Both the position numbers and the translations under genes were made by a program. Shown one piece after another: positions 27,202-38,700 of a DNA stretch of 38,700 nt (its first letter is position 1; each line of letters opens with the position of its first letter). Below the pieces are notes generated by a model. That model was given only the letters and a program-made list of their open reading frames with translations, did no database searches and had not been told where the DNA came from. The DNA is from Balamuthia mandrillaris (taxonomy: Eukaryota), in NCBI GenBank assembly GCA_031835245.2, contig JAVKOQ020000117.1, positions 124,001 to 162,700 of the forward strand, given 5' to 3'.

Positions 27202-28147
27202 ATGCAAAGAGGCGGAAGACCACTTGTGATGAAAGTGGACTTCACCGCGCTTTTGCCTTGGGAACTTGGGCTTGAAGAAGAGCTTGGTGAAGATGTGGAC
27301 CGCATGGTTGCTGTGTTAGAAAAATATCGAGACCACGTTTCACTTTTGAAGTCACTCACACTGGCAGACCTGAAAAAAGCAACCAAACAAAAGTTCAAGG
27401 CTGTATATTCTGGTTTTTTTGTTACCTTGTTACAAGCTGACTATGTATGTATAACCATTATTTCTTTGAACCATTCTAACAAGCTTGGTTTCTTACCATC
27501 ACAGCATGCACAGCTCTTTGGAACTTTTTATGATTACTTGAAAGATACACTGTTTACTCTTTCAAAGACATCTCTTATTCAAATCCAAAGGTATAGATTT
27601 GTTGTTTGTGATGCATTATTCTTTTATTCATTCTTTGTTCTATTGCAGAAAGTTAAGAACAAAATATCCTGATGTGATAATGGCAAGTAATACAAAAAGC
27701 AAAGCTCGTTTAGTGGATTGTTTGTGTTCCTTTATTGGAGTGGGTCCAAACTTATCTACTCCAAAGCCAACTCCCATTCAAACTCTTTCTTCACTTTCAC
27801 CTCCACAAATTAACCCTATAGCTTCTACTTCTTCAAGTATTACTACAACAGTTAGTCCTGTTGCTTATTCTACTGCATCTTCTACTGTGTTAACTGTTGA
27901 TAAGAAATCAGTTTCTTCAATAGGTCAAAAGAGAAAAGAAAGAGAAAACACCAATTCAACTCCAACAATTTCATCTTCACAAACAACTTCTACAACACAG
28001 CTTGTAGAAGAAACAGAGAAATTTGCACAATACTTACAACAACACTTTTTAAATCCTTGGCATACTACACATACACCTATAGATACAAAACTTTTAATGG
28101 AATTGTTATCAGAGTTTCAAAAGTATTTAATTGAACATCATATATAA
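27202..28147 (+). CDS. Hypothetical protein, possibly with SAP/helix-extension-helix-like segments
   Basis: ATG at 27202. ORF 27151-27672 splices in phase (donor 27591, acceptor ~27648) to ORF 27599-28147, and an earlier intron (~27400-27504) is probable. More AT-rich than the host genes to the left. Confidence 0.55.
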
Positions 28148-28354: not shown

Positions 28355-28783
28355 TTAATCATCACAATCATCACTTTCTTCTTTATTCTTCTTTTTCATT
28401 TTTCTCTTTTGTTGTGATGCTAAATAAGCATGCTTGGATATAGCTGACTTGATAATAGAGGATTGGGAAGAAGAAGGAAGAGAAGATGATTTAAATTGTT
28501 GTTGAAAGGCCAATCTACATTGAATAATGTGGTCCTCTAACAGATGTACTGTTAAAGCACTAAAACGTTGCATAATGCTTTCTTTTTCATTGTCCCAAAA
28601 ATGAGTAGAAAAAGCAAAATATCGATGCTTTTGTGCTAAACAAGCAAAGGCCATACACTCAGTAGAGGGATGCAAATCAATGATGCTGTCTTCATCTTTT
28701 GTGTAAAGACAAAGAAACAACTTGTAAATGAGGACAGGTTTGGTGGGAACAGTAACTGCCGTTTTAGGACCAAGGGTGAGTAC
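28355..28783 (-). pseudogene. 5'-truncated coding fragment resembling the C-terminal part of an N4/N6 (beta-class) DNA methyltransferase
   Basis: Frame is open from 28783 with no ATG before the motif. PTKPVLIYKLFLCLYTKDEDSIIDLHPSTECMAFACLAQKHRYFAF parallels the family pattern P.QKP..L...LI...T..GD.VLDPF.GSG....A.....R.FIG, with the FxGxG loop degenerate. Recognised by eye only. Confidence 0.5.
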
Positions 28784-28858
28784 TCAGAACCTACAGCATT
28801 CAACTCCCCTAGTTAGGGTTAGGGGCGGGTACTCAGAACCTACAGCATTCAACTCCCC
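28780..28858. repeat. Perfect 30-bp direct repeat flanking a 19-bp spacer that contains TTAGGGTTAGGG
   Basis: GTACTCAGAACCTACAGCATTCAACTCCCC at 28780-28809 and 28829-28858; spacer TAGTTAGGGTTAGGGGCGG. Confidence 0.95.
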
Positions 28859-28962
28859 ATGGTCCATTCTATAAAACTCTAAGTCTATAAGTCCAACGGA
28901 TAAAGTGGGGCAAAGTAGCAATTTTTTCAATTTTCTCATAGGAATATATATATATATATAAT

Positions 28963-30466
28963 CTAACTGGATATAATCATAATATCATCATCATCATCAT
29001 CATCATCATTCTCCTTTGTTTCTTCCTCTTCATCCAAGATGGATATGACTGTAGTGGTAGTAGTAGAAGTAGGAGATGATGGGAGGGAAGCATGGTTGTC
29101 ATCCGGTGTGTCAAAGTCCTCATCATGGGCCACCAAGTATTTGTCTTTCAAAGCATCGAGATTGTTGAAGAATTCTGTGAGGAGATTGCGCCATTTGTCA
29201 TAGCAATCATTGTTGGTTCGGCGTTGGGTAGGCAAGTGTTTGGCAATCTCCAACCAAGACCATCCATCACACAAGCGCCAAGTGACAAGTCTACGGATTT
29301 CTGGTGTCTGCCAAGCAATCCGTTGTCGATGACCATTCTTCTGATATTTGAGTCGATTGGATAACATTTGTTGTCGCTGCTGAAGTGCTCTGCGAACTCG
29401 TTGTCGTGGTGGTGTTTTTTCTTTTGAGTTATGATTCCTTTCATCATCATCATCGTTATCATCGTTTTTTTTCAGAACATCATCATTAGGAAAAGTAGGT
29501 AAGAATGGCTGCTCTTGATGACGAGAGGTGAGGAATGCTTTGTGAATGGGTGATCCGTTGACCAACTTGGGAAGTACAGGAGCTACAAACTCATCCACCA
29601 GCTCATTCAAGCCACTGAAAAAACCTTGTAGAATGCCAGAGATATGTTGACGGCAAAGCTGACGATGAATATTGGGCCAACGAAGAGGAGATTTGTTTTT
29701 GGCCGCATAAGTTGCTGCAGCTTCAGCTAACACATCCTTGTCAAACTCATCTGAATGATTGTCTACCCAAGCAGTACAACATTCAAGCCACAAGGAGCGA
29801 TAAAATCGTATTTGTTGATCTTTGGTTGGTAAATCTGTTCGTTTCATGAAACTAAAGAAGCAGTGTAAAAGAAAGAAAAAGAAAGAAAAAGAGAAAAAGA
29901 GAAAAAGAGAAAAAGAAAGAATGAGAAAGAAAGAGAGAAAAAGAGACAAAAAAACAAAGTGTGAATAAATGATGCAATGTTAAAAGAAGAACAAATAGAC
30001 CAACACCAATCCATCAAAACAATTATTGTTTAGACCATGAATGTTGTTGCTGTTACAATAAACCTCTGCGTTCGAGCTGAGCGCTGAGTCTAAAGGTGCA
30101 TTTTTGAATGCAAGCAAGCAAGCAAACAAACAAACAAGCCATGACTGAATAGATTGATAGATAGTGGTAGATACCATCCAACACAAAACAAACCAGCAAA
30201 CAAACAAACCAACAAACAAACAACAACAAGCAAAGGCCAACAAAAAAAAAAACAAACAAACAAACAAACAAACAAACAAACCGTTGGCGAACAGCATGGA
30301 TAAAACTCTGATAGTTGGTATCTGCAGACCACTTGGATTGTTGTAAAGCCTCTGGGGATAGATTGTGAAATGCTTCTTTGGTAACTAGCTCTGGAGCAAT
30401 CACTGCAAGGGAGTGAGGATTAAAAAAAACCACAAAGAGAAAAAGTAAGCACAGGTGGTTTATAGA

Positions 30467-30505
<39 letters not shown>

Positions 30506-31344
30506 TAGCCAAAGAAAAAACAAAAGAAAAACAAAAAATCAGATGAATAACAAACCACAATGTCGAGGCCTCGGAGAATGATGATCAGCAGCAGCAGCAG
30601 AAGAAGAAGAAGAAAAAGAAGAAGAAGAAGAAGAAAAAGAAGATGAAGGATGAAGGGTGGTAACATTGCTAACCAAGCGATTGGCCACAATAGCACGTTT
30701 TAATGTATCCTTGACGTAGACTTGCTGAGATCTACCACGAGGTACCCAACCTGCAATAAGGGCAGTGGTATCCAGTACATTGTTCTGACTATGCCCTTCC
30801 TGCAGTCCCTCCAAGATCAAGGCAGTGCAAAGGAAGCCAGCACGTAAGGAGTGAAAGGAGAATAACCCTTCAGGATAACCAGCCCGAACAGCGCGGTCTT
30901 GCAGCTTGGCATTCAAAGTATCGCGTGACCATCCCCATAATGATGTTTGTTTTTGTTTGTCTGTCAAGCACCAGTTGTGAAACTCTCGCAAATCCAAACC
31001 ATGCTTGCACAGCAGATGCTTGTTTAGCCAGTAAATAAAATCTCCAAGACAAACTCCAGCGGTTGATGTTGTTGATGCAGCAGCGGTCGTGATGGTAGAG
31101 GTGGTAGTAGTGGTGCTAAGTGGCAATGAGGATAACGGGGATGGTGATGATGAAGATATTCCTCCTGGTGGTGGTGGTGGTGGTGGTGGTGGTGGTGTTA
31201 AATAACCTTCAAAAGTAACGACATGATTCCAATGATTTGGTATTCCTTTGGTGACTTGTTGGCGCAAAGAAAGGAAATAAAGAGGAGGAGAAAAGGCATC
31301 CTCTTGGTGGTGACAGCTGATGTTGCTGCTGCTGCTGCTGCGGC

Positions 31345-31396
<52 letters not shown>

Positions 31397-31740
31397 ATTG
31401 TTGTTGTTGGAAAAGGAGGATGAAAGTTTAGGTCGAAATGCCACAATATCACCCAAACGAATGTTTGCTGCTGTAATGGCTCTGGCACCAGTACAAACAC
31501 TGTGTAACCAACAACTGGCTTCACCAGCTTTGCTCACCAGTCCATCTGGAGTGGATGCGATGATATGCAAGACGTCATCCAGCAAACAAGCATCTTTGCA
31601 CAATTGTTTGCTAGAACAGGAGGGTTTGGCTCTTTTGCAATGCCGAATGGCCTGTTTGACTTGATCTTTGATGGCATCCATTTGGTTCTTTAGCAACAAC
31701 AAGTAGGCATGATCTGTTGCCATCATTGCTGTCGTGCGTC

Positions 31741-31792
<52 letters not shown>

Positions 31793-33180
31793 AGTGACAC
31801 CATCACCAAGAAGGGTTTTGGATAGAGGAGAAGCATTCCTGCTGGTTGTGGTGATAATAGAAGTAGGTGATGATGCTGGGGATGAAGAGATGGAAGAAAC
31901 AGAGGAAAAGGAGGAGGAGGAGGAGGAGGAGGAGGCAGCAAGGGTATCAAGCTGTTGTTGGATACTTTCATCATGCAAACGATAAAGACTGGCAATCATG
32001 ACATCACGCACAGAGCTCAAGGCATACCCCACATCCAAAATCAACCATTGAACAAAGGCTCCTACGTTATGGCGTTGGAGATTCAAAGGAAGAGCTGGCA
32101 AACATTGATGATGTGCACAATGCGCTTCCCAGATGGCCAAAGTCCAAGCATGTTTATGTTGGGTCGAAGGGCTCCATCGACTCGTCACTGCTGTCAACTC
32201 TGTCCAGCGCTCTTCTGACAAATGGTTCATCAATGTGATAGCACGAGAAAGACGTCTGCCGGCACCATCACCACCGTTACGACTACTGCTGCCATGTGTG
32301 GTATCATCATTATTATCATTTGCTGTTCTAGCTCCAATATGTTGGTTATCTCTTTTCTTCTTTTCTTGTTTTTCTTCTTTGTGTTTTTCTTTATCTTCTT
32401 CTTCTTCTTCTTCTTCTTCTTTGTCATCGGTCAATAACAACAAATCTATCAACGTTGGTGTGGCTGTTGTTTTGCTTGTTGCATCTATATCTGTTTCTGC
32501 TCCTCCTCCTCCTCTTCTGTCTAATGAGGATGATGATAATGACAATAAATTACAATTGCTACCGCTATCCATAACATCTTCATTGTTCTCAAAGACAAAG
32601 GACTCTGAATTTGTTGAAGAAGAAGAAGAAGAAGAAGAAGAAGATAAAGAAGAAGAAAAAGAAGAAGCAAATGAAGAAGAAGAACCAGAAGAAGAAATCA
32701 TCCTTTTTGGTTGTTGTTGTCGTGGTTGTGATTGGGTTGTTGATGCTGTGGTGGTAATGGTGGCGGTGGTGGTGGCGGTGGTGGTGGCGGTGGTAGATGA
32801 AAAGGGTGATGCAGAAAAAGGAGGTGAACAGAGTTCTGCAGGGTTATCAACATTAGCAATAACTGGAGCAGAATCAAGGGTGGTAGCTGATGGTGGTGTT
32901 TTTAACCAATAATGATCCAAAAACTGCTTGCGAATGAAAGAGCGAGAGTCCAGAGCCTGATAGGGAGGCAAGTGATGATAGAGAGATGTTGTGGATAAGG
33001 ATGATGATGATGATGATATTGAGACAATCGTTATTTCATCATCCTCTTCTTTTGCTGCTGTTGCTACTATTGTTTTTGCTACTGCTACTTCTTTGTTGTT
33101 GTTGTTGTTGTTGTTGTTGTTATTGTTGTTGTTTATTGGTAGAGGTTGGTCAAAGGCAGCAGGAATAGATAGATTATCTT
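28963..33180 (-). CDS. Tyrosine recombinase fused to a C-terminal Myb/SANT domain (about 1200 aa from the exons traced; 5' end unresolved)
   Basis: In-phase GT-AG exons 33180-30556, 30402-30282, 30089-30064, 29834-28963. Core-binding-like region (SPSTQHKHAWTLAIWEAHC..VGAFVQWL). Catalytic set TGAR (R, 31483), VTKG (K, 31249), HSLR (30853-30842), AGW (30748), QVY (Y, 30718). Myb: AWQTPEIRRLV..WSWLEIAKHLPTQRRTNNDCYDKWRNLL. Confidence 0.88.
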
Positions 33181-33649: not shown

Positions 33650-33693
33650 TCACCTGCCTGTGTTACGGCGTTGTGAACGAGTTGTGGCTCCTT

Positions 33694-33729
<36 letters not shown>

Positions 33730-34122
33730 TAGATGACGCAGCCACAGCAGCAGCAGCACTTTGCAAAGATGATTTGGCTGCAGCAGTAGCAATAGCTTTT
33801 TGGGCAGCAGCTGCAGCCTTGCGCGTAGATTTGTTGCTAAGGCTCTTGGATGCACTTGTGTTTTCCTCTCCTTTCTGTTTTTCTGCTTCTTTTTCTCCAG
33901 CTTTTGCTTCTTCTTCTTCTTCTACTTCTTCTTCTGCTTTCTCCTCTTCTTCTTTTTCTTCTTCTTCTTCCTTGTCTCTGCTAGCATCTTTGCTTCTCTG
34001 TTCCTCTTCTTTTTCTTTTTCTTTTTCTTTTTCTTTTTCTTCTTCTTCTTCTTCTTCTTCTTCTTCTTCTGCTGTTGCTGCTGCTTGTTTAGCTGGGTCA
34101 CTAGCAGTTTGCTTTGATACTA

Positions 34123-34181
<59 letters not shown>

Positions 34182-34185
34182 TAAG

Positions 34186-34222
<37 letters not shown>

Positions 34223-36757
34223 CCACAATCAGTAAGTAATGGAATGAGAAATCACAAAGGCATAACACTGCAAACAAACACCAAAAAGATAGCGCTCCGA
34301 TGGAGCGCTAAACAATCAACACCAAAAGACAATCAAAAAACAATGAATAATAAAAACACAAAACTGGAGTTAAAAAGCTGCCGCTCCGACGGAGCGCTAC
34401 TGCATAAGGATAGAATTGCAACCAAAACAGCCAACAAAAAGAAAAAAACACAAAGAGGAAAAGGACAAACAATCCAACAAACAAACTCCAACCAACAGAC
34501 AAAATGAAATATAATACATACATCCCAACACGTCGATCAGAATGGAATCATCACTCTCTTCATCCACTGCAACTGCTGATGGAGCTGTCTTGGGCATATT
34601 TGTCTTGCTTTTGCTATTTCCACCACCACCACCACGTGGTGTATCTGTATGCATGCATGCATGCATGCATGCAAGTGAGATGCGATGCATTTGTGTGTTG
34701 TTATTGTGCAAAGAAAGGACGGATATAAGCAAGTAATAACAAAAAGAAAAAAAGAAAAAAAAAAAACGAGTAGGAGTAGTGGATGTTGTGGTTGTTGTAA
34801 CCACCAAACATGAGCACCTCTTACCTGTTGCAGGAGTGATATCAACACTCATGAGACTGGCAATCTCATCGTCATCATCATCATCAGCATCAGCATCAGC
34901 ATCATCATTCTCTGAGGAGCTGCTATTGCTACTGCTGCTGCTGCTGATACTAGGAGCAGTAGACTTGGTAGAAGCTGTAGGCTTCTTTTTCTTCTTGGAT
35001 TTTTCTTCTTCCTGCTCTGACTCCTCTGACTTATCTGCCGCCTCTGACTCCTCCGACTCGGTGGCGGTCTTCTTTTTCTTCTTTTTCTGCTGTTGCTTCT
35101 GCTTCTGCTTCTGCTTCTGTTTTTGCTTCTGCTTCTGCTTTTGCTTCTGCTTTTGCTTCTTTTTCTTTTCTTTCAGCAGCAGATCATCATCTGCTTTCCG
35201 TGGCTTCTTGCTTGTTGCAGGAGAAGAAGAGGCAGCAGAGGATGACATAGCTCTTGGGCGCTTTGTTGAGCTTGGTTTTTGCTGCTTTCTTTTTGCTGCT
35301 ATTGCTGCTGTTGCTGCTGCTGCTATGTCCATTTTGTCTACAAACTCACCAACTGATGTAGCATTTGCATCATCATCACCACCACCACCACCACCACCAC
35401 CACCCAGACGACTGCCATCATCAAGACTAAACTCTGCATCATTCAAACTACTACTCTGGTGGTCCACAGCAGCAAAAGAGCGAAGGTCAGGCCCAAAAAA
35501 CTCTGTCAAGTCAATGCAGGGGCTGGCATCAACAGAGATATCTTGCTGCAGCTCACTGCTCTTCTGAGCCAGCTTGTCCATGGCTTTTTGGTGCCTAACC
35601 GAATGGCGTTTGGCGCGATGCTTCTCCCTCTTCATTTCTGTAGTGCCGACTTTGGTAGAGGCTGTATGGATGGGCTGCCACGTTTTGTCTTCCAATTGAT
35701 CCACATATTGTAAATCCCTGGAGAGTAACAGAAAGAGAAAAAGAGAGAGAGAGAAAGAGAGAAAGAGAGAGAGAGAGAGAAATAAAGAGGAAAAGAGAAA
35801 AAGAAAAGTGAAAAAATGGTGAGTTGTTGCTATGAAACAAACAAACAAACAAACAAACAAATAAAAAAACGACTTACCAATCAGCTGCGAGTGGTGATAT
35901 AGTATCCAGCTCAGGCAAATCTTTGACATGCACAATAGCAGCTGCATCGGATAACTGGCCTGCTGGCATGTTAGCTGTAGCAGAGCTGCTAGCTGTACTC
36001 TTGTTCTTGCTTTTGGTGCTGCTGCTGCTGCTTTTGCTTCGTCTTCGCTCAGGTTTTTTGGATTTTTCCACTGCGATGTGCGGCCACACTCGCTCCAGCT
36101 GAGAACGAACCGGATGATGAATGCGTGTCTTCCAGACCTTTCTGTCCAAAGGATCCAACTCCAGCAGAGTATTTTGTTGTTGCGCTTCCTTCACCAAGCA
36201 GCGACGAACAGCAAGCACCAACCGCCTAACATCCTCCAAGGGTCCAGAAAGGTTGATGCTGGTAGAAATGCGCATGCCTTTCAAGGATTTCAGACTGGCA
36301 AAGTTCAACGCGTTCTCTGCCAAGGCTTCTTGCACCGTAAAGGGAGGACAATAATGGGTCAGCTTTATACGGTAGAGGAACAACTTTTCCTTGGCGGAAT
36401 GCTGCTTATCTACTATCGCTTCCTTTTGGGCCGCTTGCTCTAATTGCTGGTGATCCAGTGGGGGATGTAAGAAGGCCTCTGGATCTTCCTCCATCATCGC
36501 TTCTTCTTCTTCTTCTTCTTCTTCTTCTTCTTCTTCTTCTTCTTCTTCTTGTTGCTCTTCGTCTTCATCTTCCTCTTCCTCTTCTTCTGACATCCTCTCT
36601 TGTTGTCCTTTCTTTTGATGACGGCTTGTTGTTGCCTTTGGGAGAGTAGCTGACATAAGGGCATCTGCCAAAGACGACTCATGTAACCATTCTTGGCTCA
36701 ATGGTGGCAAGCGAGTATTTTCCTCGTGTGTTGGGCTATCACTATGAGTAAGCGAGA

Positions 36758-36801
<44 letters not shown>

Positions 36802-38700
36802 GTGGACAAGCAAAGGGAATTTAAAGCGGAAAGGATAACAAGTCTCACTCGCAGCAAGCAAGTAAGGAAAGGAGGGAAGTAGGCACAACATACTGGATAG
36901 TTTTAGCATGTAATATCATAAATAGTTTCTGCAGGCCTAGAGGGAGTTGTCGATATACTAACAACAGTTCTTCACGGGTGAAGGGACCCTGAAAAACACG
37001 TCCTTTTCGCTTGCGCCGTTCATCAGTGGAGGGCATTTCCTTGAGAATGCTATACACTGCAGCATTAATGAGATTACGGATCCAAATCCCGGTGGGTGTC
37101 TCATAAAATCTGGACTGAGAGGGAGTAGCATCCAACAGTTGTTGTGGTGGCAGTGGTGAAGATTGGGGTGGATCCATAGGCAAGACCTCGTTGCCACGAT
37201 CAAGACCAAGCGCAGCTTGATGCAGCACGTCCCAATGACCCTTGCGAATGGATTGCGCTAGCCACTTCCACCACGGATTTTGCAGACCGTTGATGATCCA
37301 TGGTCCTTCAACGATGCTACCATGGCAGCGTAGGCCATTGGCCACGATATCACCCAATTCCTGGATGATTCCTTCATTTTGGGCCTGTAGCCATCCATAT
37401 GTACATTAAGGGATAACCAACAAAAAAAAAAAAATGAAAGTTAGCACTTTCCTTCCACCAGGCGCACATAACAATCTCCCAACCCACCCTAATAACCAAC
37501 TAAACAAACAAACAAACAGAAAAAAAAACAAACAGATGATGATGGACCTTGCGTCTACAAAACCTCAGAAAGATTTTGCTTTGCTCTGTGTTAACTTCTG
37601 AAGGAGGGCTGACCACCATGGGAATGTAATAATAAAACACCAACTGCTTCTGGATGGCTGGAGCCAAGGGGTGCAGCAGACGAAAGTCAGTTTTCGAAAT
37701 GAGGCCCCGGTTCTCTGCTGCCAGTTGGGAAATAACATCAATGGACATATGCTCCACTAGGGACAGATCTTGTCGAAAAGCATTGAGCGTAAAGGATTTC
37801 GCATGGGCCGCTGGCAAATCCTGTTTTGTGAGCACAAAATACGGTAGCATCTCCCGTGGAGGTAAGCTTTTCTTTGATTTGGCATCATCGAAAATATGTT
37901 CCGCAGCAGCAAGCGCCACTTTCAAGACCCTGTTGTTTTGAATCTGATTCATTGCCCTGACACAACATAACACACACATAGAAGTAAGTAGGTTGGTAGT
38001 AGGTAAGTAGGTAGGTAGGTAGGTCAGAAAACAAACAAACAAACAAACAAACAAACAAACAAACAAACAAACAAACAAACAAACAAACAAACAAACAAAC
38101 AAACACACACACACACACAAACAAACAAACAAACAAACAAACAAACAAACAAACAAACAAACAAACAACAAGAAGCACATACTCAGTCTTGGAGAGTTGA
38201 ACTGCATTGGAGAGCTTCAACAAAGTGTCAGCAAATGACCATTCTCGTGGTTTTACTTTGGTGTTGGGGTCTTCTACCATCGACACAATCTGATGCACCA
38301 GTAGTGCAAGAAGATGAATTATGTTGTAATAGCGACCGTAGATCGGCATGAGTGGTGATAACCACACACCATTGTTGCCTGCGAGCTGATAATGCTGTAT
38401 GACATCGCTTGCTGAACGATACACCGCGTTAAGATCATTGTCCGATATCTTGGCTGCCACCCTCTGCTGCTGAGGAGAAGAGGCAGCTGATAAGGAAGAA
38501 GAGACGGAGGGAGGGCTAGAAGGCGAGGTGGTGGTTGCTACAATAGCTGTGGTTCTCAGCGGAGTAGAAGGAGGAGTGAAGAGATTGCTGCTGGCCTCAC
38601 CACCCATCACACCAGCAGCACCAGATGAAGATGATGACGATGAGGAAAATGGTGAATGACCACTACTATTGCTTCTACCAGAAGGCGTGGGGCTCTCTTG
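33650..38700 (-). CDS. Large multi-exon hypothetical protein (>1200 aa, 5' end outside window), co-oriented and directly upstream of the recombinase
   Basis: Exons >38700-38183, 37956-37548, 37384-36894, 36741-35878, 35717-34825, 34644-34522 and 34119-33650 all join in phase at GT-AG junctions. No domain recognised. Confidence 0.75.
34290..34399. repeat. Two copies of a GC-rich palindrome (CGCTCC-GAY-GGAGCG) in an AT-rich intron
   Basis: TAGCGCTCC-GAT-GGAGCGCTA at 34290-34310 and CGCTCC-GAC-GGAGCG(CTA) at 34382-34399. Confidence 0.85.
37990..38170. repeat. (TAGG)n, (AAAC)n and (CA)n intronic microsatellites
   Basis: Visible arrays within intron 38182-37957. Confidence 0.9.

Follow-up and report, generated by a model that had tools for sequence, protein, structure and literature searches.

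The locus described here raises the question of what a tyrosine recombinase (YR) joined to a Myb domain is, and how it came to lie in an amoebal genome. It is situated in a stretch of 38,700 nucleotides of Balamuthia mandrillaris DNA (contig JAVKOQ020000117.1), referred to below as the window. The original prediction, made from this DNA alone, proposed an intron-containing fusion gene and a candidate new family of DNA transposon. The gene is an intact-looking copy from a widespread protist family of Cre-like recombinases with a C-terminal Myb domain, and we consider it probable that these proteins are the transposase of an undescribed DNA transposon recombining at short telomere-repeat tracts. 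The predicted gene was confirmed in part, the fusion and the lack of a reverse transcriptase (RT) in the ORFs scanned stood up, and the telomere tract beside the gene and the family-wide link to telomere repeats had been missed.

The ORF track and Pfam located both ORFs where they had been placed, the recombinase ORF at 33187-30539 and the Myb ORF at 29979-28963, both on the minus strand. All six catalytic residues can be read in the recombinase ORF (R 31483, K 31249, H 30853, R 30844, W 30748, Y 30718), intact as claimed despite in-frame poly-S/A/N/P/T insertions, which are placed in loops. The Pfam match of the Myb ORF was weak (PF00249, E = 3.5e-4, under the curated cutoff), the recombinase ORF alone gave no Pfam match, and phmmer against the PDB returned Myb only and no recombinase. 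Consequently, the assignment needed the fold and a family profile. The AlphaFold model of the paralogue P0001 matched Cre first (E 3.7e-6, target TM 0.60), followed by lambda Int and XerH, in line with the lambda-integrase-type fold that had been expected. Carried over from this paralogue, which is 49% identical to the window protein, the predicted fold of the window recombinase is Cre-like, with a core-binding domain and a catalytic domain of the lambda-Int/Cre type. In an alignment that took in 180 sequences, the R-K-H-x-x-R-[H/W]-Y active site of the tyrosine recombinase superfamily was found, the aligned rows with the residue being 169/169 for R, 170/170 for K, 165/165 for H, 165/166 for the second R, 153/155 for W, and 152/152 for Y.

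The gene begins with a large exon (30556..33180, minus strand, as are all its parts) encoding a low-complexity N-terminal part, the core-binding domain from about 32254, and the catalytic tyrosine-recombinase domain. A GT-AG intron of 153 nt in phase 1 follows (30403..30555), common to all three splice models and with the same join in the NCBI models P0003 and P0024, and then a 121-nt exon (30282..30402) coding for a segment conserved family-wide. The preferred second intron comprises 430 nt in phase 2 (29852..30281); alternatively, a 26-nt exon at 30064-30089 is kept and the acceptor lies at 29835. The last exon (28963..29851) encodes a helical domain, a linker, a single Myb/SANT domain (about 29334-29180), an acidic tail, and the stop codon. 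For the helical domain, the structure matches were weak RNase III-like bundles (Z 6-7, identity 4-13%), treated as generic so that an RNase III-like identity was not adopted, and none of the matches listed was TRFH-like.

Three splice paths each give an open frame joining recombinase to Myb. The three GT-AG introns originally proposed (30555-30403, 30281-30090, 30063-29835; a 121-nt and a 26-nt exon between them) do form one such in-phase path, which is also followed by the NCBI model of the 98%-identical copy P0003, itself a prediction. The two-intron path without the 26-nt exon (30555-30403, 30281-29852) scored slightly higher, by a small margin, against a profile built from 15 non-Balamuthia homologues (439.5 bits vs. 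436.8 for three introns and 430.0 for the third model). Its polypyrimidine tract reached 0.86 compared with 0.52, its product aligns gap-free to the paralogues, and in four other NCBI models the splice goes to the corresponding position. Judged from sequence, two introns thus appear to fit slightly better than three. In the RNA runs X4-X7, for which there was no positive control, no reads were found over the junctions, and there were four partial reads near 28782-28945 (X4) and one 274-nt contig (X7). In the NCBI models P0002 and P0201, the Myb of one subfamily runs into the helical domain of the P0001-type subfamily, which suggests head-to-tail arrays in Balamuthia too, as well as an acceptor at the position of 29852.

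At the 5′ end, the recombinase frame is open from 33180, and 160 open codons precede the first ATG. Upstream lies a seven-exon co-oriented gene of more than 1255 aa (33650..38700, minus strand, start outside the window), which has two possible ends: a stop at 33650, or an in-frame splice to the recombinase exon. The donor for such a join could be a GT at 33666 or a GC at 33657, and either way the joined frame runs without a stop, for 2462 or 2465 codons. The family could accordingly be mobile while the window copy is tamed and immobile, forming the last exons of a larger Balamuthia gene of more than 2460 aa, and the long in-frame triplet insertions of the window subfamily and its small number of close copies (about three were found; P0003 98%, P0024 82%, on two contigs) fit such a reading. 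We nevertheless regard it as unlikely, given that the upstream exon also has a plain stop at 33650, the full NCBI model of the upstream paralogue P0182 ends without a recombinase, upstream-family and recombinase models never carry adjacent NCBI accession numbers, a terminal tract and site are still present at the window gene, and P0024 looks like a decaying duplicate. The upstream gene is multicopy in Balamuthia, with at least 12 related records, its protein has no known domain in Pfam and no usable Atlas match, and it may be a separate repeat family. The NCBI names of its relatives (VASt, carbonic anhydrase, phosphodiesterase) are misleading. In the transposon reading that we prefer, the window copy belongs to a low-copy, repeat-swollen subfamily and may be aged and no longer mobile.

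Recombinase and Myb are fused in one protein, as had been predicted. Both domains stand in a single uninterrupted ORF on DNA at loci L001, L004, and L005, across the L002 overlap, and at the loci read with genetic code 6, and both are carried by the Balamuthia paralogues P0001 and P0002. Among 164 proteins, 99 continue for 200 aa or more beyond the catalytic tyrosine, and Myb was present in 91 of these by a profile made from the family itself. Variant architectures occur among P0118, P0034, P0012, P0036, P0007, P0008, P0015, and P0184, including a ubiquitin hydrolase with two recombinase domains, an added chromodomain, two Myb repeats, and an N-terminal CxxC...FCSxxC finger.

A recombinase-only profile retrieved 751 clusters (50% identity) at E ≤ 1e-3, the best 150 of which were viewed, and 239 at E ≤ 1e-30. 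Named hosts were available for 4 of 20 representatives checked, and those of the family are Balamuthia, Monocercomonoides, and Blattamonas. Pattern scans of limited sensitivity revealed no relatives in IMG/VR or in prokaryote genomes. The best Atlas match, a cluster of ALOG plus integrase (0.91, 147 shared features), serves as a lead only. The family is multicopy in Balamuthia and in oxymonads, not single-copy: the Balamuthia P0002 cluster has 17 members that are 93-100% identical, with the 15 listed on separate contigs, a count from NCBI that may include haplotypes, and the window subfamily adds about three records. Near-identical Balamuthia copies abut different host genes, and the gene models P0193 and P0200 run into them. 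DUF3435, DUF3504, GCR1_C, RT, and capsid were absent among the Pfam families listed for sets of 58, 32, 22, and 51 scanned proteins, the list for the last set covering the first 25 of 56 families. Piggybac-type (DDE_Tnp_1_7) genes adjoin family members at 2 of 21 loci (L018:7356-9248 and L020:3-593); the one at L020 stands where L019 has its 5′ end, and both look like separate insertions.

The window gene lies close to a telomere repeat. A (TTAGGG)2 tract at 28813..28824 on the plus strand, the only such pair in the window (0/100 shuffles), sits 140 bp beyond the stop codon, with its G-strand reading towards the gene; TTAGGG is the telomere repeat of Balamuthia according to the available text of 10.1101/2025.02.25.640156. 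The tract is flanked by an exact 30-nt direct repeat (28780-28809 and 28829-28858, together spanning 28780..28858), which was read directly off the sequence, was not reported by Tandem Repeats Finder, and is possibly a duplicated element end. A candidate recombination site overlaps the tract at 28815..28842 (plus strand), with an 11-6-11 layout and arms complementary at 6/11 positions; its register and AC core are common to the relatives' sites. A degenerate site pattern had no match in the window. The window gene is inverted relative to this site, and in the window and L004 the tract stands on the strand opposite to that at the other loci. The flanks of the window copy and of L003 are not telomeric. 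The tract may be the target or a part of the element's own end.

Just past the tract lie two AT-rich convergent ORFs without a Pfam match, at 28355-28783 (minus) and 27229-28147 (plus); the former starts directly at the duplicated end and is possibly a gene that was interrupted. At L004, a tRNA-Met gene (L004:3599-3671) is found 250 bp past the telomere tract. Rfam returned nothing above the gathering score over 26.5-38.7 kb of the window, and no long terminal repeats besides microsatellites were found. As predicted, no RT or RNase H lies upstream in the window ORFs scanned with Pfam, with 5.5 kb upstream of the gene in view, and no capsid was found in these ORFs either.

The association with telomere repeats extends to the relatives. 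From 25 loci taken, the high-GC loci L022-L025 (E about 1e-4) were dropped before all counts. At 16 of the remaining 21 loci, as well as in the window, at least two tandem TTAGGG or TTGGGG repeats occur near the gene (at most 2/200 shuffles each); since these loci are not independent, they were sorted into eight groups; a perfect tract is present in five of them and a degenerate one in a sixth, and the other two lack a tract. A perfect tract is missing in 5 of the 21 loci. About 20 TTAGGG repeats stand at the end of L001. In L003, a sister 99% identical to it, the tract lies upstream, so that the two together give tracts on both sides of one element. Twelve loci, L006-L017, are open only under genetic code 6 (TAR=Gln), with codes 4 and 10 failing, and carry TTGGGG tracts; this code and repeat suggest a ciliate host.

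These TAR=Gln loci form head-to-tail arrays of 3.1-kb single-gene units, and the units of relatives measure about 3.1-3.4 kb with one gene each. L007, L008, and L009 share 99-100% identity to the left of the tract and 59-63% to its right, while L011 and L017 are 77% identical on the left and 100% on the right. One unit precedes three different units and another follows two, and the switch falls exactly at the tract. L002 forms a closed unit of 3412 bp that contains a single gene and a single site. The arrays, mosaic junctions, and this closure come from metagenome assemblies unchecked by reads, in which L002 may be a collapsed tandem array. An 11-6-11 inverted repeat matching at 10/11 positions is present in 5 of 22 listed sites and most others are weak, the window site with 6/11 among them; in most listed sites the AC is set at a constant distance from the final repeat. 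Spacing of this kind is typical of YR sites (PMC3212892, available text).

Such junctions might also arise if the genes were a host subtelomeric family, for example of a telomere-associated resolvase, spread by ordinary ectopic recombination and not by their own enzyme. Telomere tracts are recombination-prone anyway, the copies in Monocercomonoides fall in three clades, and the Myb of one relative is nearest TRF1 by structure alignment (for L001, 44% identity to TRF1 and at most 35% to other Mybs). We hold this explanation to be very improbable: the breakpoints lie exactly at the tract, the sequence past the tract tracks the recombinase clade, near-identical copies stand beside unrelated host genes, many copies are truncated or mutated, and the family is patchy in named genomes. 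The Myb class itself, telobox (TRF-type) or not, reads differently by sequence, where c-Myb-type repeats equal or beat TRF1. The window Myb gave no TRF match, its last helix has Tyr where most paralogues have Lys, and the motif [KR]-D-x-x-R occurs in only 46 of 104 Myb rows.

A type I hammerhead ribozyme was called by pattern search and folding, Rfam having missed it, after 18/18 code-6 units. All 15 pairs are intact, and it lies 50-100 nt past each stop codon in L006-L017 (e.g., L007:1790-1858). It leaves room for an RNA step, and the genes could in principle be part of a retroelement, TATE/DIRS-like or Terminon-like, which would draw on an RT encoded upstream or supplied in trans and use the recombinase to insert circular cDNA. 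The YR retroelement TATE forms tandem clusters within telomere hexamers (PMC6681497, available text), and C-strand repeats follow the gene on its 3′ side in the window and L004, a feature of Terminons as well (PMC6431247, available text). Yet no RT or RNase H was found in any ORF scanned, the units of about 3.1-3.4 kb have a single gene, the hammerhead is absent from the window and the standard-code loci, its near-invariant, fully paired stems provide no covariation, and at most loci the sense strand carries the G-strand repeats, opposite to the polarity that Terminon attachment requires. A circle accounts for the gene facing one way relative to the tract in the window and L004 and the other way in the rest, which RT-primed attachment would not. 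Taken together, we find a retroelement improbable, and the hammerhead may only end the transcript.

The best reading is likely a Crypton-like DNA transposon family, whose mobility, Myb specificity, and circles we infer. In this transposon, the Myb domain would tether the recombinase to (TTAGGG/TTGGGG)n while the recombinase core would bind the 11-6-11 site, with the last telomere repeat as its left arm. A unit could then be excised as a circle between two tracts and re-integrate at another tract, building head-to-tail arrays. For the window copy itself, neither an empty site nor an excision product nor a target duplication came to light. A broader version, to which we give somewhat less than even credence, is a new superfamily in amoebae, metamonads, and ciliate-like protists, in which Myb steers a Cre-like recombinase to the host's own telomere repeat (TTAGGG or TTGGGG) and a 3-kb circle produces shuffled cassette arrays in telomeric DNA.

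Most mobile elements known to target telomeres in eukaryotes are retroelements. A DNA-only recombinase family at telomere repeats in several protist lineages would, if confirmed, represent a new way of entering telomeric DNA. Few DNA transposons are target-specific (PMC8869645, available text), and the circular intermediate of eukaryotic YR transposons has long been proposed and is unshown according to the available text of PMC10104507; short defined recombination sites would render it testable. Hundreds of divergent enzyme-site pairs would likewise supply eukaryotic site-specific recombinases. In Balamuthia, whose genome has been described as full of transposons that lack annotation, one multicopy element is now named.

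The family was compared with known systems by domains and published descriptions, without a joint YR tree. It resembles Cryptons in having a YR as its sole enzyme, no RT, no long terminal repeats, and a proposed circular intermediate, and CryptonF in its C-terminal DNA-binding domain (PMC3212892, available text). Some CryptonV insert specifically in microsatellites (PMC8869645, available text), a likeness to the tract-linked family. Unlike CryptonF and CryptonA, it has Myb instead of GCR1_C or DUF3504 among the Pfam matches listed; unlike Cryptons generally, it is hosted by amoebozoan, metamonad, and TAR=Q protists and its ends are marked by telomere tracts and the 11-6-11 site. Cryptons have 4-6 bp terminal direct repeats. 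Longer telomere tracts bound the relatives here, and the far end of the window copy lies outside the view.

The TATE elements of kinetoplastids share the YR, the tandem clusters, and the fixed position in telomere hexamers, but they have gag-like and RT/RNase H ORFs and split direct repeats, in contrast to family units with one ORF and no RT; the available text of PMC6681497, from which these features are taken, was not found to mention a Myb domain, which the family has. More generally, the RT/RNase H and gag-like ORFs of DIRS, Ngaro, VIPER, and TATE were not found in the family ORFs scanned. Terminons and Penelope-like elements likewise form telomeric head-to-tail arrays with hammerhead motifs and short telomere tracts, but Terminons need an RT and have C-strand repeats right after the hammerhead (PMC6431247, available text), whereas here the hammerhead lies more than 1 kb from the G-strand tract and in one clade only. 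Euplotes Tec1/Tec2 are protist DNA elements with a YR gene that also encode a DDE transposase (PMC3212892, available text); none lies inside the family units, and no inverted copy of the left end, as in Tec-type long terminal inverted repeats, was found in them. Capsid, packaging ATPase, and polymerase of Polinton-like viruses (PLV) or virophages were not found in the 21 loci or the window ORFs scanned, where contigs are short and Pfam misses divergent capsids.

Starship captains share domains with the family, being Cre-like YRs with a site preference and a published fusion or pairing with Myb (available text of PMC10104507, PMC11162782, and PMC12256816). Since DUF3435/MYB hybrid genes occur in Starships (PMC12256816, available text), the combination of YR and Myb as such is not novel. 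The family differs in that no DUF3435 is among the Pfam matches listed, most relatives are 3-kb single-gene units without cargo, and the hosts are non-fungal, Starship YRs being reported from Dikarya only in the available text of the same three sources. The captain stands at the 5′ end of a Starship, while the window gene stands at the element end but reads towards it, and the string "telomer" occurs 0 times in the available text of the Starship surveys checked. A literature search, which left Repbase Reports, most subscription journals, and supplements outside its scope, found no description of a YR-Myb telomere family, and Monocercomonoides or a ciliate may have an entry in Repbase. The original reading of a DNA-level YR element and candidate new family is supported in part: recombinase and Myb form one protein, copies are multiple, no RT was found in the ORFs scanned, and the family lies outside the Crypton, DIRS, and Starship Pfam families tested. 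The family, apparently undescribed, fails the domain tests for CryptonF/A, DIRS/TATE, Starship, Tec1/2, and PLV; it would work like a Crypton and occupy a TATE-like niche.
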